A stretch of 64,000 nt of DNA, taken from Cytophagales bacterium (GTDB lineage Bacteria > Bacteroidota > Bacteroidia > Cytophagales > Microscillaceae). The first letter of the stretch is position 1, and each line of letters begins with the position of its first letter. Position numbers and translations under genes: made by a program. The stretch is from contig JANPJR010000030.1 in the NCBI GenBank assembly GCA_031425615.1, positions 82,492-146,491 of the forward strand, written 5' to 3'. Under the pieces are notes generated by a model. That model saw only the letters and a program-made list of their open reading frames with translations, ran no database searches and had not been told where the DNA came from. Of this stretch, positions 26,573 to 51,044 are shown in pieces.

Positions 26573-26689
26573 AAACAAACACCACAAAACAAAAAAAACC
26601 ACAAAATCACATTTAAAGCGGTTTTGTGGTTTTTTTATGGCTATTTATTTTTCAAGAATTAAAAAACTAATTACTAAAAAAACTTAAAA

Positions 26690-27916: not shown

Positions 27917-28226
27917 TTTTTAATATTATTTTTTGAAAAAGTTTGTTGTTTAAAATTTAAGTAAAATTCATTTCATTTTTTTTTAAACGTTTTTTTGCAA
28001 AAATCTGTAATTTTTTTCTAAAATAAAATTTAATTTTTGTGTTAATATTCCGTTAAAGCATAAACCAAGAAAATAAAAACATAAGGAAAGCAAAAAACCC
28101 AAACAAAAATTCCAAATCCTTGCTTAAAAGATTTGGAATTTTTTTGTGAAAAAATCACAGTAAAGAGATTATCAAAGCTATATTTTTTTTAACTGACAAC
28201 TTAAAAGCTGACAACTTTTATTTCCT

Positions 28227-28790
28227 TTAAACAGTCATTAATTCTGTTTCTTTTTTGGTTGAAATGTCATCAAGTTTTGCAATAAATTCGTCTGTAAATT
28301 TTTGTACTTTTTCTTCTGCGGATTTTACAGCATCTTCTGAAGCACCTTCTTTTTCCAAATCTCTGAGAGCTTTGTTGGTGTCTTTTCTGATATTTCTGAT
28401 ACTTACTTTGCCTGCTTCAATTTCTTGTTTTAGTTGTTTTACGAGTTGCGTGCGTCTTTCGGTGGTCAATGCAGGAATATTGAGGCGAACAATCTCACCA
28501 TCATTTTGTGGTGTGAGCCCCAAATCACTGTTTTTAATTGCTTTTTCTATTTCGCCTATCATTTTGCGTTCAAAAGGACGAATTACCAAAGAGCGTGCAT
28601 CAGGCGTATTGACCGTAGCCACTTGTACTAAAGGCGTAGGTACGCCATAATAATCTACTGTAAGCCCTTCCAATAAACTTGGGTTTGCTTTGCCTGCACG
28701 TATTTTGGCAAGTTCACGCGAAGTATAATATACTGCTTTTTCCATGAGGTCTTTGCCCTCATCAAGGAACATTTTTATTTCTTCTTCCAT
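28227..28790 (-). CDS. frr: Ribosome recycling factor
   Basis: 187 aa. The sequence aligns with RRF over its full length (…IRAGKANPSLLEGLTVDYYGVPTPL…NIPALTTERRTQLVKQLK…). Confidence 0.95.
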   Translation of the reverse strand: MEEEIKMFLDEGKDLMEKAVYYTSRELAKIRAGKANPSLLEGLTVDYYGVPTPLVQVATVNTPDARSLVIRPFERKMIGEIEKAIKNSDLGLTPQNDGEIVRLNIPALTTERRTQLVKQLKQEIEAGKVSIRNIRKDTNKALRDLEKEGASEDAVKSAEEKVQKFTDEFIAKLDDISTKKETELMTV

Positions 28791-29259
28791 AGGGATTTAT
28801 GTTTATTTTTTTTGGCAATTATAATCAAATAAATGCAAAGATAGGAAATTTTGTAGTTTTTTTTGTGTAAAAAAATCTAAAAACAATTTAGAATACGTTT
28901 TTGCAAACATAATTTTTTGTATTTTTGTAACTCTCAACATTAATAAATGTTTTAAAAAATGTTTTAAAGCAAAAAAATGACTATTGAAATCCTAAAATAT
29001 GATAGCAATTATTACATAAATCATAAAAAAATAACAGAATTTCATTATGGCAAAAAGAAATGTATCAAAAAGAAATACAAAAAAAAACGCAAACGAAATA
29101 AAACAACAAATTCAGACATTTTTTATCTTGGTTTTTTACATGATCTCTTGCAACATTTTTTGATAGGAAAGGTATTTTGGTAATATCTCTCCTATTTTTT
29201 TTGAAATACGAAATCAAAAAGTTTATTTTTAACCATTTTTCTTTGATTATTACCATACC

Positions 29260-31833
29260 ATGAAACAACTATCTTATTTTTTTACCCTATTTTTTTGTGC
29301 TGTTACTAATATTATTATTCCCCCTTTGGGGGTTTGGGGGCAAACTTTAATCGCTACATTGCCCACAGATACCGAAATAAATTGTATCACTGAAAGCCCT
29401 GACAAGATGTTTATTGTGTTGGGTGGAAAGGATAATTTTACACTTTGGCACAAAAATTATGCACAAAAACCACTTCTTACTGCCAAAAATCACACCGAAG
29501 GCGTACAGTTTGCACATTTTTTAGAAAATGAAAATTGGGGAAGTAATGGTGCAATAAAACTTCTCACAGGAGGTGGATATTCCCCAGAAAATACAATGTT
29601 TTTGTGGAACACTGAAAACATAATTTTTCCCAAAAAACGAAAAATAGCGGATTATCAAAAATTTTTCGTCGAACAAACGATTCCGCCTCAAAACTTTAAT
29701 TTCAACAACCATATAAAAGACGAATATAACCTAAACCTAAAGTCTAACCTAAAAGTAGAAGCTGTAAGTTGTATGGTGGTTGTGCCACGTAACAAACTAC
29801 ACGGAAATATCTTAATTGTAGGCAGTTTGGAGGGGAAATTGAATTTTTATCATGCAGATTATTACTTAGAAAAATTTAAACTTGAAAATCCGCTTATCAA
29901 TATCAAAAGAAAGCAAATGGGTTTAGAGCCTTTTTATTCATCTAAATCACTTTCTTATATAATTCCCTCTAAAAACCAATACTATGTACGCAGTTTGACA
30001 ATACAACAAGAAGATGTTTTGCTCATAGGCACAGGCATAGGAAGCAAAAAAGCTGGTGAATTGATAAAATTAGAACTCAGCAACCCTGATAACCGTGTTG
30101 TGGTAGCAAAATTTAATTCGCCTGTGGCAAAAATTACAATATCGCCTGACAAAAAAACAACTGTTGTATGCACTGATACAGGAGAATTATTTATATTTGA
30201 CCAGAATTTTAAGCTGATAAAAGAATATAAAGATGCAAAATATGCGTTTCCTGAATTTTCGCCCTCAAAAAATGAGTTGGCAGTTACCAAAAATGGCAAA
30301 AATATAGAAATTTGGAACATGGAAACCTTCCAAAAAATCCAAGAATGGCAAGCACACACCGAAAAAATCACCGCCCTGAAGTGGGGAATTGATGGATATT
30401 ATTTGTATTCTGCGGGTAATGACCAAAAACTACATATTTGGCTTACGATTGATATAGAAAAACGTGTACAAGAATTGGTTTCCGCCAAATTGGATAGTTT
30501 TTTGAAAAAAGATAATTTTGAAAAAATAGCTGATTACAACATTAGAACCTCAGAAAATAGCCAAAAAGGCGTTATACAATATTATTTTTCAAAATATTAT
30601 AATGAAATATCAAATAAAATATTCCACGCAGTACCTTCCCAAATGGAATATGACGCAGAAAGCGAAACCATAAAACTTTCAGGACTATTTTCACCTACTT
30701 TTTTCGCAAAAGTACACCCAAAAACCGCCAAAGATTTACAAAAAACTTTGCAAGAGTACCTAACTTGTTTTAGAAGCAAAAAACTTGAATTTTTACCCAA
30801 AAAATCCCTCAAAAACCCTGAAAAAATCGCCCAAGATGCACAAATTCCTGTACTTGTAAGTGGTGGTTTAGATGTAATTTGTGGGTCTTTGTATGATATT
30901 TGGTGTAATAATCAACTCCTTTTGACACATAAATTGGATATTTTGGCGAATTTTAACCCTTTGGCTGGTATGAAAATTAATAAAAGCATTATTAAAACCA
31001 CAAATCCACCCACAGAAACCGCAGATATTGACCTTAATATTCCTACGATTGCCAAAAATAAGTTGTTCAATAAAGATAATGTTGCAGTAATTATTGGAAA
31101 CCGTGATTATCAACACACACAAACGGTAGATTTTGCCTTAAATGACGCTCAAACCATGAAAAAATATCTCGTACAAACATTGGGTTATGACGACAAAAAT
31201 ATTATCTATGTAGAAAATGCCAAATCCGCAGATTTTGCCTTGATTTTTGGCACAAAAACCAGCTACAAAGGACGGTTAAATAACTTGGTAAAACCAAAAA
31301 AAAGCGAGGTTTTTGTGTATTATGCAGGACATGGTGCGCCAGATTTGAATAATGACAAAAAAAGCTATTTTGTGCCTGTGGATACGCAAATGGAATATAT
31401 GGAACTGACTGCTTTTGATACAGATATTTTTTATGATAATTTGGCACAAATTCCTGCCAAAAGTATAACTGTGATTATTGATGCATGTTTTTCGGGAGAA
31501 GGTATTTACAAAAATATTTCGCCTGTGCGCATCAAGTCAAAAGGTGCAATGGGCTTGAAAAATGGGGCTTTGATGGCTTCCTGTGGTGCTGACCAAGTAT
31601 CTGCTTGGTACAATGAAAAAGGACACAGTTTATTTACGTATTTCTTTTTAAAAGCAATTCACAATGAAAATGCAGATAAAAATAAAGACAAAAAACTCAC
31701 ACTTTCAGAGATTTTTCAATTTATAGATGACAGTACGGAAGGTGTGCCTTATTTTTCAAGGCGTTTGCACAATGTACAACAAAATCCTGTGCTGAAAGGG
31801 CAAAATGTGGAGATGGTTTTGGTGGAGTATTAG
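29260..31833 (+). CDS. Secreted WD40 beta-propeller protein with a C-terminal caspase-like (peptidase C14) domain
   Basis: Signal peptide present. WD-like repeats occur (…DGYYLYSAGNDQKLHIW…). The C-terminal domain has the caspase His/Cys dyad contexts YYAGHGAP and IIDACFSGEG. 857 aa. Confidence 0.75.
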   Translation: MKQLSYFFTLFFCAVTNIIIPPLGVWGQTLIATLPTDTEINCITESPDKMFIVLGGKDNFTLWHKNYAQKPLLTAKNHTEGVQFAHFLENENWGSNGAIKLLTGGGYSPENTMFLWNTENIIFPKKRKIADYQKFFVEQTIPPQNFNFNNHIKDEYNLNLKSNLKVEAVSCMVVVPRNKLHGNILIVGSLEGKLNFYHADYYLEKFKLENPLINIKRKQMGLEPFYSSKSLSYIIPSKNQYYVRSLTIQQEDVLLIGTGIGSKKAGELIKLELSNPDNRVVVAKFNSPVAKITISPDKKTTVVCTDTGELFIFDQNFKLIKEYKDAKYAFPEFSPSKNELAVTKNGKNIEIWNMETFQKIQEWQAHTEKITALKWGIDGYYLYSAGNDQKLHIWLTIDIEKRVQELVSAKLDSFLKKDNFEKIADYNIRTSENSQKGVIQYYFSKYYNEISNKIFHAVPSQMEYDAESETIKLSGLFSPTFFAKVHPKTAKDLQKTLQEYLTCFRSKKLEFLPKKSLKNPEKIAQDAQIPVLVSGGLDVICGSLYDIWCNNQLLLTHKLDILANFNPLAGMKINKSIIKTTNPPTETADIDLNIPTIAKNKLFNKDNVAVIIGNRDYQHTQTVDFALNDAQTMKKYLVQTLGYDDKNIIYVENAKSADFALIFGTKTSYKGRLNNLVKPKKSEVFVYYAGHGAPDLNNDKKSYFVPVDTQMEYMELTAFDTDIFYDNLAQIPAKSITVIIDACFSGEGIYKNISPVRIKSKGAMGLKNGALMASCGADQVSAWYNEKGHSLFTYFFLKAIHNENADKNKDKKLTLSEIFQFIDDSTEGVPYFSRRLHNVQQNPVLKGQNVEMVLVEY

Positions 31834-31973
31834 TTTTGTTTTTTTTCAGTAGTCAGTTTTTTCAGTTAATTTAGTAAAACAGCCTTAAATTTTTGACCTT
31901 TAACCTTTTTTTAATCCTTTAAACTTTAAATTTTCGCCTTTTCCACCTTGGGGGCTGGGGGCTATTTTTCCAA

Positions 31974-33098
31974 ATGTCTGCTCTTTATATCCACATTCCT
32001 TTTTGCAAAAAAGCGTGTCATTATTGCGATTTTCATTTTAGCACCAATTTTTCACAAAAAGAAGCATTGGTAAAAGCGATTTGTGTAGAAATTTCATTAC
32101 AAAAAGACTATTTAAAAAATACCAATCTTAGTTCTGTTTATTTTGGTGGTGGCACGCCTTCGGTACTTTCAGAAAAGGAATTAGGGCAGATTTTTGAGGC
32201 AATTTCAACATATTTTCTAATTGAAAAAAATGCAGAAATTACTTTTGAGGCAAATCCTGATGATATTTCTTTGGAAAATCTACGTTTGTGGAAACAGACA
32301 GGCATCAATCGCCTAAGTGTAGGCATACAAAGTTTTCATGAGCCATTTCTCCAATGGACAAACCGAAACCACACCGCCCAACAAGCAGAAAACTGTATAA
32401 AAGATGCCCAAAATAAAGGTTTTAGTGAGATAAGTTTAGATTTGATGTATGGATTTCCTGCCCAAAATCACGACATTTGGCTACAAGATTTGCAAAAAGC
32501 TACTGCATTAGAAATACCACACATTTCTGCGTATTGTCTTACGATTGAAGAAAAAACGACTTTTGGAAAATGGCTCAAACAACGAAAAATCGAACCAATT
32601 GAAGAAGATTTTGCAGGACAACAACTTGATATTTTGATACAGTTTTTGACCGAAAATAAATACGAACATTACGAAATTTCTAATTTTTGCAAAAAAAACC
32701 ATTACGCAAAACACAATACAAATTATTGGCTTGGAGGCGAATATTTGGGCATAGGAGCATCTGCACATTCTTATAATCATGTTTCAAGGCAATATAATGT
32801 GGCAAATAATACCCTTTATATCAAAAATATACAAACAAATAAAATTCCGTTTGAATTAGAAATCTTAACACCAAAAGACTTATATAATGAATATTTGCTT
32901 ACCCGATTGCGCACACATTGGGGCATTGAAATCGCAACACTGCAAGATAATTTTAAGGAATTTTGGGGAAATACACAAGAAAAAATATTGGAAAATTATG
33001 TTAAAAGTGATTTTTTAATCCAAAAAAATGGTATAATTTTTCTAACACAAAAAGGCAAAATGATTGCAGATACGATTATAGAAGATTTTTTTAATTAA
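31974..33098 (+). CDS. hemW: Radical SAM family haem chaperone HemW (protein resembling the oxygen-independent coproporphyrinogen-III oxidase)
   Basis: CxxxCxxC cluster motif HIPFCKKACHYCDF, the GGGTPS motif, and a HemN-like C-terminus. 374 aa. Confidence 0.85.
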   Translation: MSALYIHIPFCKKACHYCDFHFSTNFSQKEALVKAICVEISLQKDYLKNTNLSSVYFGGGTPSVLSEKELGQIFEAISTYFLIEKNAEITFEANPDDISLENLRLWKQTGINRLSVGIQSFHEPFLQWTNRNHTAQQAENCIKDAQNKGFSEISLDLMYGFPAQNHDIWLQDLQKATALEIPHISAYCLTIEEKTTFGKWLKQRKIEPIEEDFAGQQLDILIQFLTENKYEHYEISNFCKKNHYAKHNTNYWLGGEYLGIGASAHSYNHVSRQYNVANNTLYIKNIQTNKIPFELEILTPKDLYNEYLLTRLRTHWGIEIATLQDNFKEFWGNTQEKILENYVKSDFLIQKNGIIFLTQKGKMIADTIIEDFFN

Positions 33099-33146
33099 AA
33101 AAATAAGTTTTCCGTTTTTTCAGGTTAGATTTTTTATTATATTTTT

Positions 33147-33350
33147 ATGTTACAACACAAAGAAAGAATTTTATTAGCCCAAAAATCATTGCTTGGCGTT
33201 GCAGTAGGAGATGCTTTTGGCGATAGTTTTTTTGGGGAATTTGAAAAAATAAATACGCAAATTTATAATAAAGAAATTCCTCGAAGCCTATATCATACAA
33301 TTATCACATCCAAACCATCAAAAGTATATTGGACAATGGTACAAATATGA
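33147..33350 (+). pseudogene. Truncated N-terminal fragment of an ADP-ribosylglycohydrolase-family gene
   Basis: The 67-aa ORF RILLAQKSLLGVAVGDAFGDSFFGEF matches the conserved N-terminus (LLGxAVGDAxG) of ADP-ribosylglycohydrolases. It stops after 67 codons and has no in-frame continuation. Confidence 0.35.
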
Positions 33351-33554
33351 CCGCACAAGATACCCTCTGTGGTCATAACTTTGTAAAAAAAAATTGTAAC
33401 AGAATAATATTTTGCAATACAAATAAAAAGAGCAAAATAAAACAATTCTTTGCGTGGAAAAATCCATCTACTACGTGTGTTCTTGCTCTTTTTTATGCCC
33501 ATTTTGCTCTTAGCAGCTCGCCAAGACCAAAAAAAACCAATCCACAATCCCCTC

Positions 33555-34394
33555 TCAATCCTTCAAAACACTTTTTTTGAGTATCAGCACCACCAAAAAC
33601 TGCATACCAGCCACCGTAGCCATAGCTCCAGCAATAGAACCATTGAGCCATACTGCCAAAAAATAGCCCATTATTGCACAATTTACCCCAAAAATCAACG
33701 CCAAAAAAATCATTTTTTGCAAACTATGCGTAATAAGATACGCAGTAGCAGGTGGCACAACCAAAAAAGCCAGCACCAAAATAGCCCCAACCGCCTCAAA
33801 TGCCAATACGGTCATAAAAGACACCGCACTCATCAACGCATAATGCCAAAAAAGCACAGATATACCCAAAGAAGTCGCAAAAACTTCATCAAAACTCGTC
33901 AAAAAAAGCCCTTTGTAACCCACCCACACAAACAATAATATCCCCAAGAGCAACAAAAATAACCGCCAAATCGTGCTTGGCACACCCAAAAAACCTTCTT
34001 CTAAGGGAATGTACGCTATTTCGCCATACAATACGCAATCTTGGTCTAAATCGATTTGACCAGCCCACACCGAAATCATAATCACACCTAACGCAAATAA
34101 TGTCGTGAAAGACAAGCCAATAGACGCATCTAAGGGCATTTTGCCTCGTGTGTGCAAAGTTTCTATCAAAATCGTAATACCAACCCCAAAAATGCCCGCC
34201 CCAATCAACATCATGCCCGAAGCCCTACTTTGTGCAAGCCAATACGCCAACACAATGCCAGGCAATACTGCATGTGAAATCGCATCTCCCACCATAGTAG
34301 CCTTGCGAAGCACCAAAAAACTACCCAACAACGCCCCACAAATCGCCACCAAACTTCCCGTAAGCACAATATAAAAACTATCCACAAATATCAA
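33555..34394 (-). CDS. znuB: Metal (Zn/Mn) ABC transporter permease, ZnuB/ABC-3 family
   Basis: 279 aa with about 8 TM segments. The N-terminus LVLRKATMVGDAISHAVLPGIVLAY is typical of ABC-3 permeases. No cognate ATPase or substrate-binding protein gene lies adjacent. Confidence 0.8.
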   Translation of the reverse strand: MIFVDSFYIVLTGSLVAICGALLGSFLVLRKATMVGDAISHAVLPGIVLAYWLAQSRASGMMLIGAGIFGVGITILIETLHTRGKMPLDASIGLSFTTLFALGVIMISVWAGQIDLDQDCVLYGEIAYIPLEEGFLGVPSTIWRLFLLLLGILLFVWVGYKGLFLTSFDEVFATSLGISVLFWHYALMSAVSFMTVLAFEAVGAILVLAFLVVPPATAYLITHSLQKMIFLALIFGVNCAIMGYFLAVWLNGSIAGAMATVAGMQFLVVLILKKSVLKD

Positions 34395-34500
34395 ATTAGG
34401 AATTAAAAATTAGGAATTAAGATTTTTTTGTCATTTTTCCTAAAACTAACAAATTAAGAATTAGGAATTTTTTTGCCATTTTTCCTAAAAATGAATAAAC
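34393..34500. repeat. AATTAGGAAT tandem motif plus a duplicated TTTTTTTG(T/C)CATTTTTCCTAAAA unit, sitting immediately 5' of the znuB start
   Basis: aaattaggaattaaaaattaggaattaag...tttttttgtcatttttcctaaaa...aaattaagaattaggaattttttt gccatttttcctaaaa. The same composite recurs at 37153-37228, 47155-47215, 60038-60110 and 6478-6496. Confidence 0.75.
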
Positions 34501-34539
34501 TGAAAAAACTGATAACTGAATAAACTGACAACTTAACCA

Positions 34540-35109
34540 TTATTTCATTTTGATTTTTGTGAGATTGTAAGGCCACACAAAACTCATATCGCCTTTGGGT
34601 GTATTTTCCCACACAATATAAAATGGGTCTAATTCCTTTAATTCATCACCTTTGTAAGCAGGCATAAAACGCTTCCCTTGTGGAGCTTCTACATCTTTAA
34701 ACACCAAATACCCTTTGTGGTGGAGTGCTTGCCCAAGTCGCATGGTAACAATATATTTATCATCACATTCAAAAAAAAGTTTTGTTTGTGTTGTATCTAC
34801 ATTTTGAAGGTCAAGATTTTCCATCAATAAATTTTTTAGGCTAATGCCTTTATATGTTTTTTTACGAAAAAAAACAGGGTCATACCCTACTTCTACTGTA
34901 ACTGTATCTTTGAAAGCTCCTTTTTTTTCCAATTCAAGGATATTGATTTGCGTACGAGGGAGCAGTTTTTTTGGTTCTTGTGCAATATCAGTATTATTTG
35001 AAACCACACTTTTGGATTCATTTTTTCCGTTGCAATTTGTTAAAAGAAAAATTGAAATTAAAAAAATATTTATTAAAAAAAGGAAATGATAAGAAAAAGT
35101 TTTTTTCAC
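34540..35109 (-). CDS. Hypothetical lipoprotein
   Basis: Signal peptide with a lipobox-like LLTNC. 189 aa. No motif recognised. Confidence 0.5.
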   Translation of the reverse strand: MKKTFSYHFLFLINIFLISIFLLTNCNGKNESKSVVSNNTDIAQEPKKLLPRTQINILELEKKGAFKDTVTVEVGYDPVFFRKKTYKGISLKNLLMENLDLQNVDTTQTKLFFECDDKYIVTMRLGQALHHKGYLVFKDVEAPQGKRFMPAYKGDELKELDPFYIVWENTPKGDMSFVWPYNLTKIKMK

Positions 35110-35384
35110 GATTTTTTATTAAAATAAATGTAGGAAACTAAACAAAAGAAATTTTAATCCAACGAAATTGAAAGCTAAAAATAAAAATATTATTTTAAAT
35201 ACATTTTTAAAAAGCATTTTTAATTTATAAATAAATTTATAAAATTTTTGTGTAAAAATAAGTTGTTTTTTGTAAATAATGTGTTTTTGGGTATGATTTT
35301 GATTTTAAAAAAAATAAAATTTTTATAAAAAACATAATTTTGAACAAAAAGCGTTATTTTTGAAGTTTATAAGATAAACACATA

Positions 35385-36050
35385 TTGATAAAATATGTTT
35401 TTTTGAAGAACTTTAAACCATTTTTTATGCAAAAACATTTACTTTTTCTTAGCCTTTATTTTGTATTTTTATTACCATTTTTTTCATTAAAAGCACAAAC
35501 AAGTGCAGAAGTTTTTTTTAAAAAAGGAAAAGAATTTATTACCCAAAAAAACTATACAGAGGCTTATACTGCATTTGAGGAAGCCATTAAACTTGACAAA
35601 ACAAACCACGAATATTTTGCCCAAAAAGCATGGGCAGGCATCAAATCCGAAAAATATAAAGATGCTCTCAGCGACCTTCGCCAAGCCCTCAAACTCAAAC
35701 CTGATGTATCTGAATACCATCATTGGCGTGGTGTAGCGTATGACAGTTTGGGCAAAGATAAATCTGCCTTAGACGAATATTTGAAAGCCAATAAATTGGA
35801 CTCCAAAAATGCAAGCGTATATGTCAGTAGAGGCGTCCTATATTTAAAAAAGAAAAATTACAACAACGCTGTCGCAAACTTCAATACTGCTATTCAAATC
35901 AATAAAAGGCTTGGCGAAGCATATTATTGGCGTGGCTTTGCCAAATATCGTTTGGTAGATTCACAAGGTGCTTGCAATGATTGGCGAACAGCTGTACAAC
36001 TCAATATCCCACAAGGAAAAGAAATATTAGAAAAGCTGTGTAAGGAGTAA
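35385..36050 (+). CDS. Secreted TPR-repeat protein
   Basis: Signal peptide present. Repeated TPR-like units (AYTAFEEAIKLD, YHHWRGVAYDSLG, AYYWRGFAKY). 221 aa. Confidence 0.7.
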   Translation: MIKYVFLKNFKPFFMQKHLLFLSLYFVFLLPFFSLKAQTSAEVFFKKGKEFITQKNYTEAYTAFEEAIKLDKTNHEYFAQKAWAGIKSEKYKDALSDLRQALKLKPDVSEYHHWRGVAYDSLGKDKSALDEYLKANKLDSKNASVYVSRGVLYLKKKNYNNAVANFNTAIQINKRLGEAYYWRGFAKYRLVDSQGACNDWRTAVQLNIPQGKEILEKLCKE

Positions 36051-36120
36051 TTACCCCTAACCTCCAAAGGGGAATTAATACAAATAATTTACCATTTGCT
36101 ACCTTTGGGTTTGGGGGCTT

Positions 36121-37152
36121 TTAATCTTCCAAAACATTGTGCAAAAATGTACTTTTGAGGGCAATCCAAATCAAATAAAAAATGATTGCCCAAGTAAGAT
36201 AAATGGCATAAAAATCTTCTTTTGTTTGAAATTTTTTCTCAATAATTGGACTTTTTTCCAATTTATCTATTTCCTTAAATACTTCTGTAAGTGCATTGTT
36301 ATTTTGCACCCTATAAAATTTCCCTTTTCCGAGTTCTGCTACTTTTCTTAGCACCGTTTCGTCTGCGGTTTGGCTTATCATTACCGTTTTACCTGTGAGC
36401 GTATCAGTTGTAGGCACGTCTCCCTCTGTACCAACCATGATGCTGTATATTTTGATGTTGTAATATTGTGCAAGTTGGGAAGCAGTAAGCGGGTCAAGAC
36501 TTCCTGCGGTATTGTCGCCATCACTTATCAAAATAATTACCTTGCTTTTGGCTTGTGATTCCTGAAAACGATTGATAGCCACGCCCAATGCAGAGCCTAT
36601 GGCAGTGCCTTGTTCTGTAATATCGCCTACTTTGAGATTTTGGAGATAATTATCAAGCAAATTATAATCTGTGGTCAAAGGTGATAAAGAATATGCTTCT
36701 CCTGCAAACACGACCAACCCTATGCGGTCATAAATACGCCCTTTGATAAATTCTTTGGCTACTTTTTTGGCAGAATTTAAACGATTTGGGGGTAAATCTT
36801 CAATCCGCATAGATTCTGAAATATCTGTAATCAACACAATATCAATACCTTCAACGCTTTGCTCTATTTGGGTAGATATTTTTTGAGGACGTGCCAACGC
36901 TACTATGACCAAACACACACACAGCCCCATGAATGTAGGTAAGATAAACCGCAAAAAACGTTCAAATGAATATTTTAGATACTTTTTTGGCAAATTATAT
37001 TTTATTTTTTCACGCACTTGTATATTGCCTATTCGTTTCAAAAAAAATAAAAATGGCACGCCCAATAAAAAATATAAATAAAATTCTTGTTCCCACACAA
37101 ATTGTGAGAGCGTCTCAGGCAAAAACCATTGAATTGATAGCCAATCTAACAT
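36121..37152 (-). CDS. von Willebrand factor A (vWA) domain membrane protein, BatA-like
   Basis: Two N-terminal TM segments. The vWA MIDAS motif is DIVLITDISESM. 343 aa. Equivalent to Bacteroides aerotolerance BatA. Confidence 0.8.
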   Translation of the reverse strand: MLDWLSIQWFLPETLSQFVWEQEFYLYFLLGVPFLFFLKRIGNIQVREKIKYNLPKKYLKYSFERFLRFILPTFMGLCVCLVIVALARPQKISTQIEQSVEGIDIVLITDISESMRIEDLPPNRLNSAKKVAKEFIKGRIYDRIGLVVFAGEAYSLSPLTTDYNLLDNYLQNLKVGDITEQGTAIGSALGVAINRFQESQAKSKVIILISDGDNTAGSLDPLTASQLAQYYNIKIYSIMVGTEGDVPTTDTLTGKTVMISQTADETVLRKVAELGKGKFYRVQNNNALTEVFKEIDKLEKSPIIEKKFQTKEDFYAIYLTWAIIFYLIWIALKSTFLHNVLED

Positions 37153-37228
37153 TAATTAGGAATTGAGAATTAATAATTAGGAATAAATTTAATTAGGAAT
37201 GAAGAATTAGGAATAAATTTAATTAAGG
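37153..37228. repeat. AATTAGGAAT tandem motif array immediately 5' of the batA-like start
   Basis: attaattaggaattgagaattaataattaggaataaatttaattaggaatgaagaattaggaataaatttaattaagg (a ~30-bp unit, duplicated). Confidence 0.7.
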
Positions 37229-37330
37229 TTATTTTTACATAAAATTTTAATATCTAAAATAACATTTTAAATTAAAAATTAAAACCAATATTTTATTTGT
37301 AGATAAAGGAATAGAAATTCAAATTATAAC

Positions 37331-37542
37331 TCACTACTATACAGATTTTAAAAAAACAAATTCAAAATGCAGGAAAAAGGCTTTTTTTGAATAGTTTTTA
37401 CTAAAAAATAATACGTTTCTTTGAAAAATTAAAGCAAATATTGCGTTTAATGTTGTTTTCTGTTTGTAATTTTTCAAAATATTTTGTTTAAATCATTTCA
37501 AAGCACTTTTTTTAAAATTCTAAAAAGATGTATAGCAGTAAG
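37331..37542. mobile_element. MITE-like element, copy A (~212 bp), with terminal inverted repeats TCACTACTATACAG / CTGTATAGCAGTAAG
   Basis: The ends are inverse complements of each other (tcactactatacag...tgtatagcagtaag). The body is about 85% identical to 50221-50494 and is partly shared with 39340-39500. No ORF. Confidence 0.5.
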
Positions 37543-37591
37543 AAATTATCATAATTAGACTATCAAATTCCTAATTTCCCATTCCTAATTC

Positions 37592-38584
37592 CTAATTCTC
37601 CTTAATTGCTTTCATAATCATATCTTTGAGCGGGAGGATATTTTTTTCAGTCATAGACGAAATAAATATGTGTGGAAGGTCAGTAGGCAATTCTTTTGTC
37701 ATAAGACTTTCAAGTTCTTCATCGAGTAAATCCGTTTTGGTAATGGCAAGAAGGCGTTTTTTCTCCAATAGTTCAGGGTTATATTTTTTCAATTCGCCCA
37801 ACAAAATTTTATAATCTTGTGCAATATCTTTGCTTTCTGCAGACACCATAAAAAGCAGAATAGAATTACGTTCTATATGCCTCAAAAATCGCACACCAAG
37901 TCCCCTACCCTCTGCAGCACCTTCAATAATACCAGGAATATCTGCCATGATAAACGATTGTCCATCACGATATGATACTACGCCCAAATTTGGTACAAGC
38001 GTTGTAAATGGATAATCTGCAATTTCTGGTTTGGCAGCAGACACAACTGATAAAAGTGTGCTTTTGCCTGCATTTGGAAACCCTACAAGTCCCACATCAG
38101 CAAGCACTTTAAGCTCCAAAATCAAGGTTTTTTCCAATGCTTCTCCGCCCTCTTGTGCATACATAGGTGCTTGATTGGTCGCACTTTTAAAATTATTGTT
38201 GCCAAGACCACCTCTGCCACCTCTAAGCACGATAATCTCTTGTTCGTGTTCTGTAATTTCTGCTACTATTTCGCCTGTGATTTCATCTTTTGCCACTGTG
38301 CCAAGCGGTACAGTAATTATTCTATCTTCGCCTTGTGTACCTGTCCATCTTGCACCTTGACCGCCTTCGCCACTTGTAGCAAAAATATGTCTTTGGTATT
38401 TGAGGTGCAAAAGTGTCCAAAAATTTCGGTTACCTTTGAGTATAATATGTCCTCCTCTCCCACCATCACCGCCATCAGGGCCTCCATTTGGGCGAAATTT
38501 TCCTCTTGCGAAACTCACCGCACCATTACCGCCAGCACCACTGCGAAGGTATATTTTTACGTAATCTATAAAATTTTCTGCCAT
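37592..38584 (-). CDS. obg: GTPase Obg/CgtA
   Basis: N-terminal Obg fold ([21 protein letters not shown], with a Gly-rich region), then G-domain motifs GFPNAGKST and DIPG. 330 aa. Confidence 0.95.
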
Positions 38585-38594
38585 GTTTTTAGAA

Positions 38595-38788
38595 GGTCAA
38601 AAGGTTTAAAAGGTCAAAGGTCAAAAAACATAAACTAAATTTGTTTTTTTCAATTTAATTATTGTCAGTAAAAAATAATCTGAATTTCAAAAAACAACAA
38701 AAAGACAAAAAATATTTTGAATTTTCAAAACCTTTAACTTTTTAACCCCTTTTAAACTTTGACCTTTGACCCTTTTGAACTTTGATTT
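38595..38788. repeat. Inverted pair of low-complexity GGTCAAAAGG / CCTTTGACC repeats flanking ~100 bp, directly upstream of the obg start
   Basis: ggtcaaaaggtttaaaaggtcaaaggtcaaaaaa at 38595-38628 is the inverse complement, in style, of aaacctttaactttttaacccc ttttaaactttgacctttgacccttttgaactttg at 38728-38788. It belongs to the same motif family as 15056-15140. Confidence 0.45.
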
Positions 38789-38996
38789 TTTTTTCCTGCA
38801 AAGATACAAGCGAAAAGCATTTTTTAGTTAAAATTTTAAAAGAATTATAATTATTTTTCTTTTATTTTTTATTTTTCAAAAAAAGTAACTATGTTTGCAA
38901 CCTTAAATAAAAATGCTTTTTTTTTATTAAAAGCATTTATTTAAAGAAAATTAGAAAATATAAACAATACATTATATAATTATTACTTTTTAAACA

Positions 38997-39254
38997 ATGG
39001 CAAATCATAAATCTGCGCTAAAACGTATTCGTTCAAACGAAAAAAAACGCCTTCGTAACCGCTACCAACTCAAAGCAACAAGAGCAATGGTAAAAAAAGT
39101 ACGTAATAGTAAAAACAAAGCTGAAGCATCACAAGTATTAAACCTTGCTTTTGCTTTGCTTGACCGTTTGGCGCGTAAAAACGTAATCCACAAAAATAAA
39201 GCATCTAACAACAAGTCAAAACTTGCAAAATTTGTAAATAAACTTGCTGCGTAA
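38997..39254 (+). CDS. rpsT: 30S ribosomal protein S20
   Basis: 85 aa, MANHKSALKRIRSNEKKRLRNRYQLKATRAMVKK... is canonical bS20. Confidence 0.9.
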   Translation: MANHKSALKRIRSNEKKRLRNRYQLKATRAMVKKVRNSKNKAEASQVLNLAFALLDRLARKNVIHKNKASNNKSKLAKFVNKLAA

Positions 39255-39303
39255 TTTATAACAAAATAGTTACAACAAGCTAAAAGCATTTTTTTAAGGT
39301 GTT

Positions 39304-39350
39304 AAAAATCCAAACCAAATTTATGTATAAATTTGGTTTGGATTTTTGTT
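39304..39350 (+). terminator. Rho-independent terminator of rpsT
   Basis: AAAATCCAAACCAAATTT-atgtat-AAATTTGGTTTGGATTTT is a perfect long stem, followed by TGTTTTTATT. Confidence 0.7.
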
Positions 39351-39500
39351 TTTATTGGGAAATAATGTATTTCATTTCTTTGAAAAAATTAAAACATATA
39401 ATTGTATTTAACACTGTTTTCGGTTTGTTATTCTTGAAAAAGTTGGGACAGACCTCCATAAACTTCGGTACAGACCCAACTTTTTGAAAAAAACAACTTT
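39340..39500. repeat. Partial, TIR-less copy of the MITE body (copy C), including the 43-bp GGACAGACCTCCATAAACTTCGGTACAGACCC sub-element
   Basis: Shares gaaaaaattaaaaca-ata...tttaac-ctgtttt-c-gtttgt... and the cagacctccataaact-ggtacagaccc segment with 50330-50420. Confidence 0.35.
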
Positions 39501-39582
39501 CACAAAACCTAAACTTCGTAAAAGTTATTCTTGGTCATAACAGTCAGATTTCTGCGGAATGACAAAAAAATCAAAACCCATT

Positions 39583-42249
39583 TTACAACAATTCTTGTGC
39601 TTTTGCGATAGCATTTGTAAGTCCTGCTACATCTTTCCCACCTGCGAGTGCGTAATGTGGTTGTCCTCCACCGCCACCTTGTATGTGTTTGGCAAGTTCT
39701 TTTACCCAATTCCCTGCATGGAATTTCGCATTTTCAGGTTTCTTTTCCAATAAACTATCCGAAAAAGCCACCGAAATAAACGGTTTTTCATCTATTTCTG
39801 TACCTAACACCAATGCGAGGTTTGGCACTTGGTTACGCAATTCAAAAACAAGATTTTTCAAGGCTTCTGCAGACGAAATTTTAATAACTTGGCTAATAAA
39901 ATTTATATTATTCAGGTTTTGAATTTTTTGCAAAAGGTTGTTTTTCAATACTTGGTTCGCTTCATTTTCCAAATGTTCTATTTTTTTAAGCAGTTGTCGT
40001 TTTTCTTCTTGTGTATCTGAAATTGCCTTTTTCAAATCTTTTGGATTGTTAAACATTTGGCGAATTTCGTCTAATGCATTGGTTTGTTGCGTAATATATT
40101 CCGACAATTTTTCACCTGTGATTGCTTCGATACGTCTCACACCTGATGCACTCGAGCCTTCTGCAACGATTTTAACGCCACCGATTTTGCCTGTTGCAGA
40201 CACATGTGTACCACCACACAATTCACGCGAAAAACTTGCATCAAACGTAATCACACGCACAAATTCACCATATTTTTCTCCAAAAAGTGCAGTTGCACCA
40301 AGTTCTTCGGTTGCTTTTTTGATAGGTACATTGCGTTGTTCGTCCAATATGATATTTTGGCGTATGCGTTCATTGGCGATATTTTCTATTTTTAATAAAT
40401 TTTCTGGAGAAATTTTTTCAAAATGCGAAAAATCAAACCTCAAACCTTCATCATTGACCAAAGAGCCTTTTTGTGCAATATGTTTACCCAATACTTCACG
40501 CAAAGCAGAATGTAAAAGATGCGTAGCAGAGTGATTTGCAGAAATATTGCCTCGTCTGTGTGCATCTACTTGTGCCAAAACGTTCATTTCTTGGAATTTA
40601 CTTGTGTATTCAAGCCATGATTTATCTTGTGTGAGGTGAATAATAAGGTCATTTTCCTTTTTTGTATCAAAAATTGGAATTTTTACCTCAAAATTTGTAC
40701 CTTGCAATGTTAATTCGCCTACATCACCGACTTGTCCGCCACTTTCTGCATAAAAAGGCGTTTTATCCAATACAATTTGGTAAAAAATTTGGTTTTTGGT
40801 GCTTACTTGGCGATATTTTACAAGGTTTGCAGTAGCAAAAAGCGTGTCATAGCCCAAAAATTCTACTTTGTCAGAAGGAATTATTTGCACCCAATCCGAT
40901 AAATCTTGTGCTGAGGCTTGTCTTGCCCTGTCTTTTTGCATTTTCATTTCTACCTCAAAACCTTTCTCATCAATGCTCAACGAATTTTCTTTGGCAATCA
41001 AAGCAGTTAAATCCAAAGGAAAACCAAAAGTATCGTACAATTCAAAAACTTCGTTGCCTTGAATTTCTGTTTTTTTATTGTTTTTGGTGGTTGTAATAAG
41101 ATTATCAATGCGTTTTATGCCATTTTCTAAGGTTTTCAAAAAAGAAATTTCTTCTTGTAGAATTACATTTTCCACAAAATCTTTTTGTGCAAATAATTCT
41201 GGAAAAACATCTTTAAATTGTTCTGCCAATAAAGGCAAAATGCTATGCAAAAAAGGTGTTTTGAAACCCAAATAGGAATAACCATAACGTACCGCCCTAC
41301 GCAAAATACGCTTGATTACGTAACCAGCACCATTATTGGAAGGCATTTGTCCATCTGCTATCGTAAAAGAAATTGCTCTGATATGGTCAGCAACTACACG
41401 CAACGCAATATCTGTTTTTTCATTTGCACCATATTTTATTTGGCATTTCCCTGCTACAAATTGAATAATTGGCTGAAAAACATCTGTGTCATAATTGGAT
41501 TTTTTGCCCTGAATTGCCATACAAAGCCTTTCAAAACCCATGCCTGTATCTACGTGTTGGGCGGAAAGCGGTTTGAGGGATTTATCTGCAAGCCTTTCAA
41601 ACTGCATAAACACATTATTCCAGATTTCTACAACTTGCGGATTATCTCTATTTACTTCATCACGCCCAGCTTTGAGCGTTCTTTCGTGGTCATCACGCAA
41701 ATCTATATGGATTTCGGAACAAGGCCCGCAAGGACCTACTGCACCCATTTCCCAAAAGTTATCTTTTTTATTTCCAAATAAAATTTGGTTTTCGGGAAGA
41801 TATTTGAGCCAAATTTTATAGGCTTCGCTGTCTTGTGCGAGGTTTTCGTTGGCATCACCTTCAAAAACGGTTGCATACAAACGGTCTTTTGGCAATTTAT
41901 AGACTTCTGTCAATAATTCCCAAGACCAAGCGATGGCTTCTTCCTTGAAATAATCGCCAAAAGACCAATTCCCCAACATTTCAAAAAGCGTGTGGTGATA
42001 AGTGTCATGCCCTACATCTTCCAAATCATTGTGTTTGCCTGTTACACGTAGGCATTTTTGCGTGTCCGCTATGCGTGGCGAAGGTGCGGTTTGATTACCC
42101 AAAAAATAATCTTTGAACTGTACCATGCCCGAATTTGCAAACATGAGCGTTGGGTCATTTTTGAGGATTAAGGGTGCAGAAGGCACTATTTGGTGGTTTT
42201 TTTGGCGAAAAAAGTCTAAGAATTGTCTGCGTATTTCGTGAGAAGTCAT
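39583..42249 (-). CDS. alaS: Alanine--tRNA ligase
   Basis: 888 aa, class II aaRS motifs, the editing-domain HxxxH...CGGTH signature (HSATHLLH, CGGTHV), and a C-terminal DHHA1-like tail. Confidence 0.97.
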   Translation of the reverse strand: MTSHEIRRQFLDFFRQKNHQIVPSAPLILKNDPTLMFANSGMVQFKDYFLGNQTAPSPRIADTQKCLRVTGKHNDLEDVGHDTYHHTLFEMLGNWSFGDYFKEEAIAWSWELLTEVYKLPKDRLYATVFEGDANENLAQDSEAYKIWLKYLPENQILFGNKKDNFWEMGAVGPCGPCSEIHIDLRDDHERTLKAGRDEVNRDNPQVVEIWNNVFMQFERLADKSLKPLSAQHVDTGMGFERLCMAIQGKKSNYDTDVFQPIIQFVAGKCQIKYGANEKTDIALRVVADHIRAISFTIADGQMPSNNGAGYVIKRILRRAVRYGYSYLGFKTPFLHSILPLLAEQFKDVFPELFAQKDFVENVILQEEISFLKTLENGIKRIDNLITTTKNNKKTEIQGNEVFELYDTFGFPLDLTALIAKENSLSIDEKGFEVEMKMQKDRARQASAQDLSDWVQIIPSDKVEFLGYDTLFATANLVKYRQVSTKNQIFYQIVLDKTPFYAESGGQVGDVGELTLQGTNFEVKIPIFDTKKENDLIIHLTQDKSWLEYTSKFQEMNVLAQVDAHRRGNISANHSATHLLHSALREVLGKHIAQKGSLVNDEGLRFDFSHFEKISPENLLKIENIANERIRQNIILDEQRNVPIKKATEELGATALFGEKYGEFVRVITFDASFSRELCGGTHVSATGKIGGVKIVAEGSSASGVRRIEAITGEKLSEYITQQTNALDEIRQMFNNPKDLKKAISDTQEEKRQLLKKIEHLENEANQVLKNNLLQKIQNLNNINFISQVIKISSAEALKNLVFELRNQVPNLALVLGTEIDEKPFISVAFSDSLLEKKPENAKFHAGNWVKELAKHIQGGGGGQPHYALAGGKDVAGLTNAIAKAQELL

Positions 42250-42432: not shown

Positions 42433-43359
42433 TTACTTGTTGTTACTTTCTAAATAATCACGCACATTTGCCAAAACATTTATAAGTCGTCCCCTATTAA
42501 AAACGTTTTCAGGAATATTTTGAATAGGATTCCCTACCAAATGAAGTGTGTGTAATTGAGGGAAATGATTGAGTGATGCCAATGAAAATTCAGAGATTTG
42601 GTTATAAGTCAAATCCAAAATATTTAATTTTTGTAAATCTTTCAAAAACGAAATATCAGAAATTTGATTTACACTTACATTTAAACTTTTCAGATTTTGC
42701 AAATCTTTTAAAAACGAAATATCAGAAAGCCCATTATTTATCAAATATAAATTTTCCAAATTTTGTAAATCTTTTAAAAATGAAAAATCTACAATTTGAT
42801 TGCATCTTAAATCTAAACTTACTAAATTTTGTAAATCTTTTAAAAATGAATAATCTACAATTTGATTTCTTCCTAAATTTAAACTTGTCAAATTCTGTAA
42901 GTTTTTTAAAACAGAAATATCAGAAATTCTATTGTAACTTAAATCTAAACTGGTTAACTTTTGTAAATCTTTTAAAACAGAAACATCTAAAATCTTATTG
43001 CTACACAAATTCAAACTGGTTAAATTTTGTAAATCTTTTAAAAATGAAAAATCAGAAAGTTGATTCCGATGCAAATTCAAACTGGTTAAATTTTGTAAAT
43101 CTTTTAAAAATGAAAAATCTAAAACTTTATTGCTATACAAATCTAAACTTGTCAGATTTTGTAAATCTTTTAAAAATGAAAAATCAGAAATTTCACACTC
43201 ATTTATATTTAATCCGACTACTTCTTTTGTATCATTGAGTATATATGTTACTGGATTTTCCTGATTGAGAACACTAAGAAGATTATCATTTTTTTTTGTT
43301 TCTATAAGTTTGAAACCTAAAATCTCCTCTAATTCAATGATTTTTGGTGGTTTTAACAT
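42433..43359 (-). CDS. Leucine-rich repeat (LRR) protein, internalin-like 22-residue repeats
   Basis: At least 9 tandem units of LKDLQNLTSLDLxxNQIxDxSF. 308 aa. Confidence 0.8.
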   Translation of the reverse strand: MLKPPKIIELEEILGFKLIETKKNDNLLSVLNQENPVTYILNDTKEVVGLNINECEISDFSFLKDLQNLTSLDLYSNKVLDFSFLKDLQNLTSLNLHRNQLSDFSFLKDLQNLTSLNLCSNKILDVSVLKDLQKLTSLDLSYNRISDISVLKNLQNLTSLNLGRNQIVDYSFLKDLQNLVSLDLRCNQIVDFSFLKDLQNLENLYLINNGLSDISFLKDLQNLKSLNVSVNQISDISFLKDLQKLNILDLTYNQISEFSLASLNHFPQLHTLHLVGNPIQNIPENVFNRGRLINVLANVRDYLESNNK

Positions 43360-43560: not shown

Positions 43561-43590
43561 AGATGAGGATTATGAATTGGGAATGAAATA

Positions 43591-43629
43591 ACACAAAAAA
43601 AGCATTTTAAAGAATGTTTAAAATGCTTT
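43591..43629. repeat. Left copy of a direct-repeat hairpin (ACACAAAAAAAGCATTTTAAA-gaatg-TTTAAAATGCTTT) bounding the HEPN cassette
   Basis: Roughly 38 of 40 positions match 44947-44984. Each copy is itself a 12-bp-stem hairpin. Confidence 0.75.
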
Positions 43630-43645
43630 CCTTTTATTTTTTTTG

Positions 43646-44341
43646 TTACCAATAATTTTCATATTTTATTTTTTTATATTTTTTTAAAGCTAAAAAATCT
43701 TCAATATTATTCAAAAATTCTTGCAAAAATAAGAAAGTTTCCTTTTTAAAAGTTTTTACTTCATCAAAAGCATAACTATTACCACAATCTTGAAACGATA
43801 TTTCGCCATGTGCCAAATCATTTCTTTTGTGTTTGATTTGTGCTAATCTTTTACCCTCCACACGCTTATTACTTGCAAAACCATATTTTTGGGCGAAAGT
43901 TAGCACTTGTTTTGCGTCTATTTTTCCTGCAAAACTCACACCTTTTACTTTTTTCAAATACTCTTTTTTCTTTGATTTGGCATCATATATATCAATAATA
44001 TCCTTTTCTAATTGTTGCAATATATTGAATATTCGGTCAGAGCCTCTGTGTTCATCTTCAAAATTCTTGTATTTGTATTCAATCCAAATCTTTTTCATTT
44101 CGTCTATTGCTTCCTCAAATCGCAACGTGTCTTCGGTTGAAATTGTAATGTGAATGTGGTCTATTGCTAAAATCACAGTAGATTCTAAAAGGTTATAAAG
44201 CAATAAAATACAGGTTGCCCGCATAACTGCGGGCAATGGAATAGTGGCAGGTATTTCTCCATTTTCTATTTTTTGAAGAAAAGCAAAGTATTGATTTATT
44301 TCTTCTTTTCTGCGAGAAAATTCATTTTTTACACTTTGCAT
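43646..44341 (-). CDS. HEPN-domain protein (Abi / RiboL-PSP / MAE_28990-like), a putative RNase effector
   Basis: The C-terminal KHKRNDLAHGE matches the HEPN Rx4-6H motif. The protein is predicted all-alpha and 231 aa. Its ATG lies 2 nt after the stop of the upstream ORF. Confidence 0.5.
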   Translation of the reverse strand: MQSVKNEFSRRKEEINQYFAFLQKIENGEIPATIPLPAVMRATCILLLYNLLESTVILAIDHIHITISTEDTLRFEEAIDEMKKIWIEYKYKNFEDEHRGSDRIFNILQQLEKDIIDIYDAKSKKKEYLKKVKGVSFAGKIDAKQVLTFAQKYGFASNKRVEGKRLAQIKHKRNDLAHGEISFQDCGNSYAFDEVKTFKKETFLFLQEFLNNIEDFLALKKYKKIKYENYW

Positions 44342-44343: not shown

Positions 44344-44871
44344 TTATATATTATTTTCTTGTTTGGTAAAAATTTGTGTGATTAACTCATTTTTTACCAT
44401 TTTCACATCTTTTCCTGAAAATACAATAGTTTTTATGGGGGCATTTTTAAATTTTCTTTGTCTTGGAATGGATAAATCTCTGAAATAAAAACCTTCTAAA
44501 CTTGTCAAAATATTTAATTTTGACAATTCTAATTTATTATTTATAAAATTATCTAAAGTTTTTAGATAATATTTACCATCAACAATTTCCAGTTTGTATG
44601 TTTCTGGAATTTCCACCATAACAACCGTATAAATAGGAGAAACTCCTAAGATAACTGATTGTATGAATTTGGATTGTTTTTCTATATCCCACATATTTTT
44701 TGGATTGTTGTTTAAAACCAGCTCATTTTCTGTGTTTTCCAAATCAGGTTTATATATGTTCAAAAAATCTTCTATTCTGTATGTGCGCAAATCATAATCT
44801 AATTTTTGTTGATTATCAATAATCTGTGTTTCTGCTATTTTGCTTTTTTCTATTTTTTCTTCTATGCTCAT
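44344..44871 (-). CDS. Small protein resembling a DUF262 (ParB/Srx-fold) domain with a degenerate DGQQR motif
   Basis: …PKNMWDIEKQSKFIQSVILGVSPIYTVVMVE…LEIVDGKYYLKTL parallels the DUF262 arrangement of QREFVW…SILRGYPIG…LDGQQRLTSL, but QQR is replaced by KYY. 175 aa. Confidence 0.4.
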   Translation of the reverse strand: MSIEEKIEKSKIAETQIIDNQQKLDYDLRTYRIEDFLNIYKPDLENTENELVLNNNPKNMWDIEKQSKFIQSVILGVSPIYTVVMVEIPETYKLEIVDGKYYLKTLDNFINNKLELSKLNILTSLEGFYFRDLSIPRQRKFKNAPIKTIVFSGKDVKMVKNELITQIFTKQENNI

Positions 44872-44946
44872 AATTTTATTGGTTTAAATTTTATGCAAAT
44901 TACATTGTTTTTTCCTCAAAAAAAAAGATTTTTTAATTTTTACAAA

Positions 44947-44984
44947 ACACAAAAAAAGCATTTTAAATATGTTTAAAATGCTTT
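44947..44984. repeat. Right copy of the direct-repeat hairpin; it also acts as a bidirectional terminator between the cassette and the S9 peptidase gene
   Basis: ACACAAAAAAAGCATTTTAAA-tatg-TTTAAAATGCTTTTTTT. Confidence 0.75.
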
Positions 44985-45008
44985 TTTTATTTTTTACCAA
45001 AAACCCCC

Positions 45009-47154: not shown

Positions 47155-47215
47155 ATTAGAAATTAGGAATTAGGAATGGAAAATTCAGAATTTTTATTTG
47201 TCATTTTGTAGGAGT
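47155..47215. repeat. AATTAGGAAT tandem motif plus a TTTTTATTTGTCATTTT unit immediately 5' of the S9 peptidase start
   Basis: aaattagaaattaggaattaggaatggaaaattcagaatttttatttgtcatttt. Confidence 0.7.
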
Positions 47216-48535: not shown

Positions 48536-48585
48536 AGATTTTTTTTTAAGATTTTTTAAAATTTAAAACTTTTTTTGTTTATTTG

Positions 48586-48697
48586 TAAGTAAGACTTAAT
48601 TTTTAGTTAATGGTTTATTTTACATACAATTTTTTTATTTGCAATAAGACTTAATTTTTAGTTAATGGTTTATTTTACACACAATTTTTTTATTATC
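48586..48697. repeat. Perfect ~55-bp tandem duplication upstream of the 48820 gene
   Basis: taagacttaatttttagttaatggtttattttaca[t/c]acaatttttttatt occurs twice in tandem. Confidence 0.75.
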
Positions 48698-48819
48698 TTT
48701 GTACAAACGCTCATAAGGGTTTAAAACCATTTTTATATGTGTTTTGATGATATTTTTTATAAGAAATTAACCTAAAAAATATAGTATAAACCAATTTTAG
48801 CCACATATTTACTTCTAAG

Positions 48820-50013: not shown

Positions 50014-50220
50014 TTTTTTGAAAAAAATAAGTAGATTTTTAAGTAATTATTTTGTATTTTTACTAAATTTAAAATTACAAATAATGATTATTTTTTGTGT
50101 ATTTTTGTGAAAATATAAATTTTTTCCTTATTTTTTGGGTAAATAAAAAAATAGATTATAAAAATGCCATAAGATAAAATTCAGAGTGAGCAAAAAATTA
50201 CAAATTTAGAATTAATAACT

Positions 50221-50494: not shown

Positions 50495-50535
50495 AAAAAA
50501 AATATAATTAATTTTGTAAAAATTTAAAAAAATAA

Positions 50536-51000: not shown

Positions 51001-51010
51001 AATAATTTCC

Positions 51011-51044
51011 AAACTTACCAACTTTTAAAAGGGTTGGTAAGTTT
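51011..51044. terminator. Bidirectional terminator hairpin between convergent genes
   Basis: AAACTTACCAAC-ttttaaaagg-GTTGGTAAGTTT, a 12-bp perfect stem. Confidence 0.55.

Follow-up and report, generated by a model that had tools for sequence, protein, structure and literature searches.

Why does a short, AT-rich sequence recur in three intergenic spacers of a Cytophagales genome, and what could have brought it there? We analysed a stretch of 64,000 nt (hereafter the window, to which all positions refer unless another record is named), for which a sequence-only reading had proposed a family of miniature transposable elements or, alternatively, of structured non-coding RNAs. The three copies, here called A, B and C, are in our view probably old relics of a non-autonomous cut-and-paste transposon (MITE), and we hold this reading with some confidence.

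Three diverged copies in intergenic spacers

The copies, all in the same orientation and within 13 kb, are the following:

37330-37542, plus strand: copy A, 213 nt, without about 60 nt present in B and C
50223-50495, plus strand: copy B, 273 nt, the most complete copy
about 39346-39529, plus strand: copy C, a decayed core without recognisable termini

A and B are collinear on the same strand and align in two blocks, one of 181 nt at 83% identity and one of 75 nt at 88%, in agreement with the value of roughly 85% estimated beforehand. Over its central 115 nt, C shares about 70% identity with A and about 80% with B, and divergence among the copies amounts to 15-30%. A profile built from the three copies found no other copy in the 64-kb window, and a 26-nt degenerate core pattern likewise matched A, B and C only, so that the earlier count of three copies in 13 kb holds, as does the description of C as a partial copy devoid of terminal inverted repeats. 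The copies delimited by the sequence-only reading were real, and their boundaries had to be corrected to the coordinates above (those of A and B following the 14-nt register of their termini).

The full element, of ~270 nt, is non-coding and AT-rich (22-27% G+C in a window of 32% G+C). Neither A nor B contains an ORF of at least 60 aa, in line with the earlier remark that no ORF is present. The short minus-strand ORFs of A, B and C vary in start, stop and frame, and those of A and B differ at 8 of 29 shared residues, which is about what 85% DNA identity would produce without selection and therefore points to neutral drift.

The spacer with A is flanked by obg (37592-38584, minus strand) on one side and a VWA-domain gene (36121-37152, minus strand) on the other; that with B, by an orphan ORF of 397 aa (48820-50013, plus strand) and then a small lipoprotein-like ORF (50548-51000, plus strand); and that with C, by rpsT (38997-39254, plus strand) and alaS (39583-42249, minus strand), which converge. 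A is therefore antisense between two minus-strand genes and B sense between two plus-strand genes. The earlier remark that the copies sit just downstream of gene 3' ends (obg, rpsT and the 48820 gene) is correct as to position, since A begins 49 nt past the obg stop and B 209 nt past that of the 48820-50013 ORF. Past rpsT, at 50 nt, we observed a hairpin with a perfect 21-bp stem followed by a T-run (39303-39348), presumably the rpsT terminator, which takes up the site expected for the left arm of C.

The proteins closest to the Obg of the window belong to Microscillaceae, Thermoflexibacter and other Cytophagales-like Bacteroidota, at ~74% identity, with a single relative at 89% (GCA_013297825.1). 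In this relative the synteny differs and no copy occurs within 21 kb.

Inverted termini and the limits of homology

Both A and B are bounded by 14-nt inverted termini with the consensus CTyACTrCTATACA:

37330-37343, plus strand: left terminal inverted repeat of A, CTCACTACTATACA, matching the IS50 outside end at 11/14 positions in register
37529-37542, minus strand: right terminal inverted repeat of A, read inward CTTACTGCTATACA, 12/14 identical to the left terminus of A
50223-50236, plus strand: left terminal inverted repeat of B, ATTACTACTATACA, the two B termini pairing at 13/14 positions
50482-50495, minus strand: right terminal inverted repeat of B, read inward TTTACTACTATACA
39534-39547, minus strand: weak candidate for a decayed right terminus of C, read inward CTGACTGTTATGAC, matching the IS50 outside end at 10/14 positions

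The termini read TCACTACTATACA (37331) and TTACTGCTATACA (37541, minus strand) in A, and TTACTACTATACA in B, both at 50224 and at 50494 (minus strand). A terminal 13-mer is present at all four ends of A and B with at most one mismatch. Allowing up to two mismatches, it matches the window eight times, against 1.8 expected, and none of 100 shuffled sequences reached eight. In B the inverted arms extend over 27 nt (50220-50246 and 50472-50498) with 85% complementarity. The sequence-only reading was right that inverted termini bound A and B, although the right end of A reads ...gatgtatagcagtaag and not 'ctgtatag...' as it had given. The left and right subterminal regions of the element are unlike each other, and each is followed inward by a ATTTTAAAAAA box, at a distance of 1 nt from the left terminus and of 9-10 nt from the right.

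Judged by eye, the similarity of A and B seemed to run 15-25 nt beyond the termini. We rejected this impression because 10-92% of 1,269 random AT-rich segments of the window score as high as the flanks. With the flanks at chance level, the inverted termini mark both limits of the homology, as they do in a transposon.

For C, the candidate right terminus is not significant alone; it was placed by collinearity and matches the right terminus of A at 9/14 positions by eye. A left terminus near 39269-39282 (8/14) was rejected, as it had no duplication.

A sigma-70-like hexamer pair, TTGAAT-N17/18-TATAGT, is conserved on the minus strand of A (37336-37365) and B (50229-50257), where it reads outward over the left terminus and, in A, faces the VWA gene. 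It is probably not meaningful, since Bacteroidota promoters differ from this type.

Candidate target-site duplications

A short direct repeat flanks copy A:

37321-37329: candidate left target-site duplication of A, AAATTATAA, matching 37543-37551 at 8/9 positions
37543-37551: candidate right target-site duplication of A, AAATTATCA, matching the left copy at 8/9 positions

The register of this comparison was taken over from an element in another genome, described below (JANYDQ01), and in such a fixed register random pairs of 9-mers from AT-rich parts of the window match at 8/9 positions or better with a frequency of about 0.003. The search for duplications gave 8/9 at A and 5/9 at B, C being without ends. 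A displaced duplication of B (8/9, with shifted boundaries) was rejected, as it lies within chance for the 325 offsets tried. The absent duplication at B is a weakness of the MITE reading; given that A and B have diverged by 15%, a 9-bp duplication can be expected to have decayed to some extent.

An inner module absent from A

B and C share a segment that A does not have:

50368-50422, plus strand: inner module of B, with two ACAGACC-type direct repeats ~21 nt apart, absent from A
39437-39491, plus strand: inner module of C, 84% identical to that of B and in the same relative position

Its G+C-richer block, GGTCAGACC...ACAGACCC, is found only in B (50377-50408) and C (39446-39477), with no occurrence expected by chance. 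As the block occupies the same position relative to the core in both, the length difference of ~60 nt between A and B, which falls at the matching place in B and C, has a deletion in A as its simplest history: A would have lost ~60 nt internally, between A-runs, with no insertion in B. The 43-bp sub-element perceived earlier in B and C is accordingly common to both, but rather than a separate insert in B it is the segment deleted from A, and the block as quoted has 35 letters. In C the module is closed by a 17-nt inverted repeat.

In a rival reading, the copies would be a family of small non-coding RNA genes or cis-regulatory RNA elements, with the inverted ends as a closing stem and the inner module with its two ACAGACC repeats as the functional part. 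All three copies share the plus-strand orientation and adjoin gene ends, the module is 84% kept between B and C, and B folds better than shuffled sequences (z -4.8 on the plus strand). However, the fold is about equal on the minus strand (z -4.1) and driven by the pairing of the termini, and such symmetry is what a DNA palindrome gives; the plus strand of A has a z of only -1.06. A is without the inner module, C without the closing stem, and the hairpin around the module of C is not kept in B. The orientation with respect to the neighbouring genes is inconsistent across copies, and no Bacteroidota-type -7 box occurs inside the elements. Rfam gave no match at gathering score in the whole window, and in the three spacers only eukaryotic miRNA and other sub-threshold noise at E <= 10. 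The structured RNA that the sequence-only reading had kept as an alternative therefore finds no support, and we regard it as very unlikely.

A sister MITE with the same ends in another Bacteroidota genome

To the MITE reading, evidence from another genome can be added. A pattern covering all four termini of A and B (TTTTTTAAAATN{1,12}TGTATAGYAGT) was scanned against 185,579 species-representative genomes and matched 15 loci, at none of which did a profile search detect interior homology to A or B. Only two of the 15 carry an inverted pair of the terminus, and both belong to the same Bacteroidota MAG, JANYDQ01 ('Bacteroidetes bacterium 336R_metabinner_73_sub'; contigs JANYDQ010000240.1 and JANYDQ010000307.1), where they delimit an element of 207 nt:

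L058:953-1159 and L068:1879-2085 (MAG JANYDQ01): the two copies of the sister MITE, 96% identical to each other

This element is a textbook MITE, bounded by a perfect 14-nt inverted repeat (TAAACTACTATACA...TGTATAGTAGTTTA) and flanked by perfect 9-bp direct repeats that differ by locus (CAATTTGCC and CTTGCTTTT). To our knowledge it has not been described. Over 24 nt, one end coincides exactly with the left end of B, ACTACTATACAAATTTTAAAAAAC; the other has ACTACTATACAT plus a T-run in common with the right ends of A and B. The contrast between left and right ends is the same in the two families, which also share the terminal core ACTACTATACA and the size class, with 9-bp duplications that are perfect in the sister element and 8/9 at A. 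Their interiors, in contrast, are unrelated (G+C-rich hairpins in the sister element, AT-rich DNA in that of the window), and their ages differ: the sister MITE, judging from the 96% identity of its two copies, is young and was probably active recently, whereas the copies of the window are old.

Possible further copies elsewhere in the genome

Short-read contigs from SRR20217183 that are 100% identical to the window cover 26121-37419, 37574-39478, 48650-50267 and 50489-57738. Four of their ends fall inside the copies (37419 in A, 39478 in C, 50267 and 50489 in B), and the remaining ends lie at tandem repeats or heptamer arrays. If these contigs were built with 31-mers, as Logan assemblies are, A, B and C, which have no exact word longer than 26 nt in common, cannot themselves have broken them. 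The breaks hint at closer copies elsewhere, and could also stem from poor coverage of DNA with 22% G+C.

An exhaustive search of 1.84 billion representative proteins with the minus-strand ORF of B returned a single match, a 50-aa protein (P0123) with 61% identity in an alignment of 41 residues that takes in the stretch encoded by the inner module. It corresponds to a spurious ORF on another NCBI contig, of 123 kb, and probably marks a fourth, diverged copy in the source genome. A word-indexed protein search for spurious ORFs of other copies found nothing.

The interior of the family was not found in the other public genomes or metagenomes searched: an interior pattern that fits all three copies (TTTCTTTGAAAAAN{20,32}TGTTTTCNGTTTGT) had no match in the species genomes or the JGI metagenomes, neither of which includes the source genome. 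In the JGI metagenomes the terminal pattern gave 29 single matches, all attributable to chance; the only inverted pair (L080) was rejected because it lies within a 772-aa ORF, and a profile match (L098, E 0.014) was rejected as noise. The terminal and inner-module patterns had no match in viral contigs, and a literature search for the terminal words retrieved primers only.

These data bear on another explanation, by which the spacer sequence was duplicated locally through recombination or gene conversion, the inverted termini and the repeat flanking A being chance features of AT-rich DNA. It would account for three copies lying in one orientation within 13 kb, for B being without a target-site duplication and for no other copy having been retrieved as DNA. 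Against it, the homology stops exactly at the inverted termini while the flanking genes are unrelated, the terminal 13-mer is enriched over shuffled sequences, an end identical over 24 nt delimits, in another genome, a MITE whose duplications are perfect, and a fourth copy appears to lie on a different contig. Such an origin consequently seems highly improbable to us.

Proposed mobilisation and the candidate transposase

How might a MITE of this kind have moved? A DDE transposase encoded elsewhere would bind both ends and excise the element, and insertion at staggered cuts 9 bp apart would generate 9-bp target-site duplications; the most likely partner would be an IS4-family enzyme of the Tn5/IS50 type, which is only a lead. 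C would subsequently have lost both ends, and the three copies would have persisted in spacers just past gene ends because insertions there do little harm. The repeats, their termini, the limits of the homology, the repeat flanking A and the sister MITE are observed directly; that a transposase acted in trans, which enzyme this was and that the copies are now inactive is what we infer. The copies are probably relics that no longer move.

The lead comes from the ends. The IS50 outside end, CTGACTCTTATACA, matches the termini of A at 11/14 positions in register and those of B at 10/14, a comparison chosen after the fact. Among the 127,974 14-mers of the window only three match it at 11/14, two of which are the A termini. 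We verified the outside end, CTGACTCTTATACACAAGT, on a Tn5-bearing plasmid, where it lies 62 nt before an ORF with the domains DDE_Tnp_1 and Tnp_DNA_bind and 1.5 kb before aph(3')-IIa, with the inside end at the far side; the transposase so verified is annotated in another record as "IS4-like element IS50R family transposase". In Vibrio, an IS4-family element with a protein 39% identical to the IS50 transposase keeps CTGTCTCTTATACACA, and the ends of the window element match this Vibrio IS50-group end at 11/16 positions, again in a comparison chosen after the fact; the end type used for the IS50 group was CTG(A/T)CTCTTATACA. The ends of a Nostoc IS4-family element, at 29% protein identity to IS50, are quite different.

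IS50 makes 9-bp target-site duplications. The window element resembles it in that the match of CTGACTCTTATACA to CTCACTACTATACA (11/14) is in register from the first base after the duplication, in the 9-bp duplications themselves (perfect at the two sister-MITE loci, 8/9 at A) and in asymmetry, IS50 having distinct outside and inside ends and the window element unlike left and right subterminal regions. It differs in that end positions 3, 7 and 8 are not the same and that there is no transposase in, or found for, the window element. IS50, furthermore, has a host in the Proteobacteria, not the Bacteroidota, and the resemblance is the sole link between the two. It has also been picked out after the fact among thousands of known IS ends. 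The match of the ends together with the 9-bp duplication makes an IS50-type (IS4-family) parent the leading candidate partner, which we put forward tentatively on these sequence comparisons.

The search for a cognate transposase detected no autonomous element: no inverted pair of the termini surrounds a transposase gene in the window, the species genomes, the JGI metagenomes, the viral contigs or the plasmids. As these scans required an exact match to a 22-base pattern, a partner with slightly different ends would escape them. No transposase with DDE_Tnp_1 and Tnp_DNA_bind occurs among the 17 ORFs of the window scanned with Pfam. In a tblastn search of plasmids with the IS50 transposase, which matched 849 records, neither the ten commonest host genera nor the 60 listed records included a Bacteroidota genus, and a BLAST search of plasmids with the left end of B gave chance matches only.

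The element could be a MITE moved by a transposase of a family other than IS4/IS50. Duplications of 8-9 bp are also made by, among others, the IS903 group of IS5, ISLre2, IS256 and IS1. Besides the failure to find a partner, this alternative is favoured by IS4-family members having unrelated ends already at 29% protein identity to IS50, so that a relative in Bacteroidota keeping 11/14 positions of the IS50 end would be unexpected. What speaks against it is that the termini agree with the IS50 outside end at 10-11/14 positions, in register and directly after the duplication, that matches as good are rare in the window and that this agreement coincides with the 9-bp size of the duplication. We regard a partner from another family as quite possible, if somewhat doubtful.

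With an IS50-type partner, the 24-nt end common to two otherwise unrelated MITEs would mark an undescribed Tn5/IS50-like transposase lineage in Bacteroidota, its end signature CTnnCTnnTATACA and 9-bp stagger having been kept across phyla. As a further possibility, the inner module (two ACAGACC repeats 21 nt apart, 84% kept in the end-less copy C between rpsT and alaS) may have been adopted by the host as a putative protein-binding site or terminator. Taken together, these two proposals are unlikely. Were the partner confirmed, Tn5-like elements would be documented in Bacteroidota.

Comparison with other small repeats

Overall, the MITE reading is supported by the lack of a conserved ORF, the end of homology at the inverted termini, the 8/9 repeat at A and the sister MITE with the same termini; against it stands the fact that only two copies have termini and that only one of them has a flanking duplication. 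Bacterial MITEs are known from Cardinium (MITECca01, IS982-derived, about 240 bp, 169 copies; PMC9769881) and from P. gingivalis (PMC4596501). Like them, the window element measures 200-300 bp, bears terminal inverted repeats but no transposase gene, is intergenic and would need a transposase acting in trans. Unlike them, it is seen in few copies that are old (15-30% diverged), with no parent IS identified, and its termini are unrelated to the IS982 ends of MITECca01. REP/BIME units are imperfect palindromes of 20-40 nt, often clustered and without terminal inverted repeats or target duplications; we rejected a unit of this type because the element measures 213-273 nt, ends in inverted repeats of 14 nt and is flanked by a duplication.

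With this result, a Cytophagales-like lineage that has been little sampled gains a MITE family and a transposon end shared with another genome. MITEs are an ordinary kind of genomic passenger and this one opens no long-standing question; its modest interest resides in an end common to an unrelated MITE in another Bacteroidota genome and in the possible IS50-type link. In practical terms, these repeats may account for breaks of short-read assemblies at the spacers concerned, and repeats of ~270 nt are left blank by annotation pipelines or filled with spurious small ORFs.

Other features of the window

Short arrays of the heptamer AATTAGG occur at 6479-6488, 34394-34468, 37154-37214, 37567-37597 (inverted), 47161-47177, 58184-58193 (inverted) and 60043-60073, as well as in another record (L002, 12499-12605 and 12741-12771), and AATTAGGAAT is found 16 times where 0.44 occurrences are expected. 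All of the arrays adjoin gene starts or stops, in places as inverted clusters on both sides of a spacer, and copy A lies between two such clusters. Motif and layout are the same in the relative with 89% Obg identity.

Several other repeats were observed. Direct repeats of 50 nt (43590-43639 and 44946-44995), 74% identical and each containing a hairpin, bracket a pair of genes (ORFs 43646-44341 and 44344-44871) in which a HEPN_MAE_28990 domain and a weak match to GmrSD_N were recognised; the arrangement resembles a small cassette of the defence type whose terminators are repeated, or else a mobile cassette. Two tandem 55-nt units, 85% identical, lie at 48575-48684, upstream of the orphan ORF 48820-50013, and a short-read contig of the same organism ends there. 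Coding tandem repeats are found in the 1085-aa ORF 22061-25318 (330-nt units, 22647-23489) and in ORF 42433-43359 (66-nt units, 42518-43325, encoding leucine-rich repeats). A long-read contig from ENA ERZ26165376 (L003) is 99.4% identical to window positions 37839-39498, from inside C to the middle of obg, and then continues with 10 kb of unrelated sequence; either another strain is rearranged here or the contig is a chimera derived from a single read. Finally, a 500-nt spacer contains an ORF of 76 aa (57790-58020) that carries a (GEIK)3 repeat and does not match Pfam, and the short-read contig end just before this ORF, at 57738, suggests another repeated sequence.
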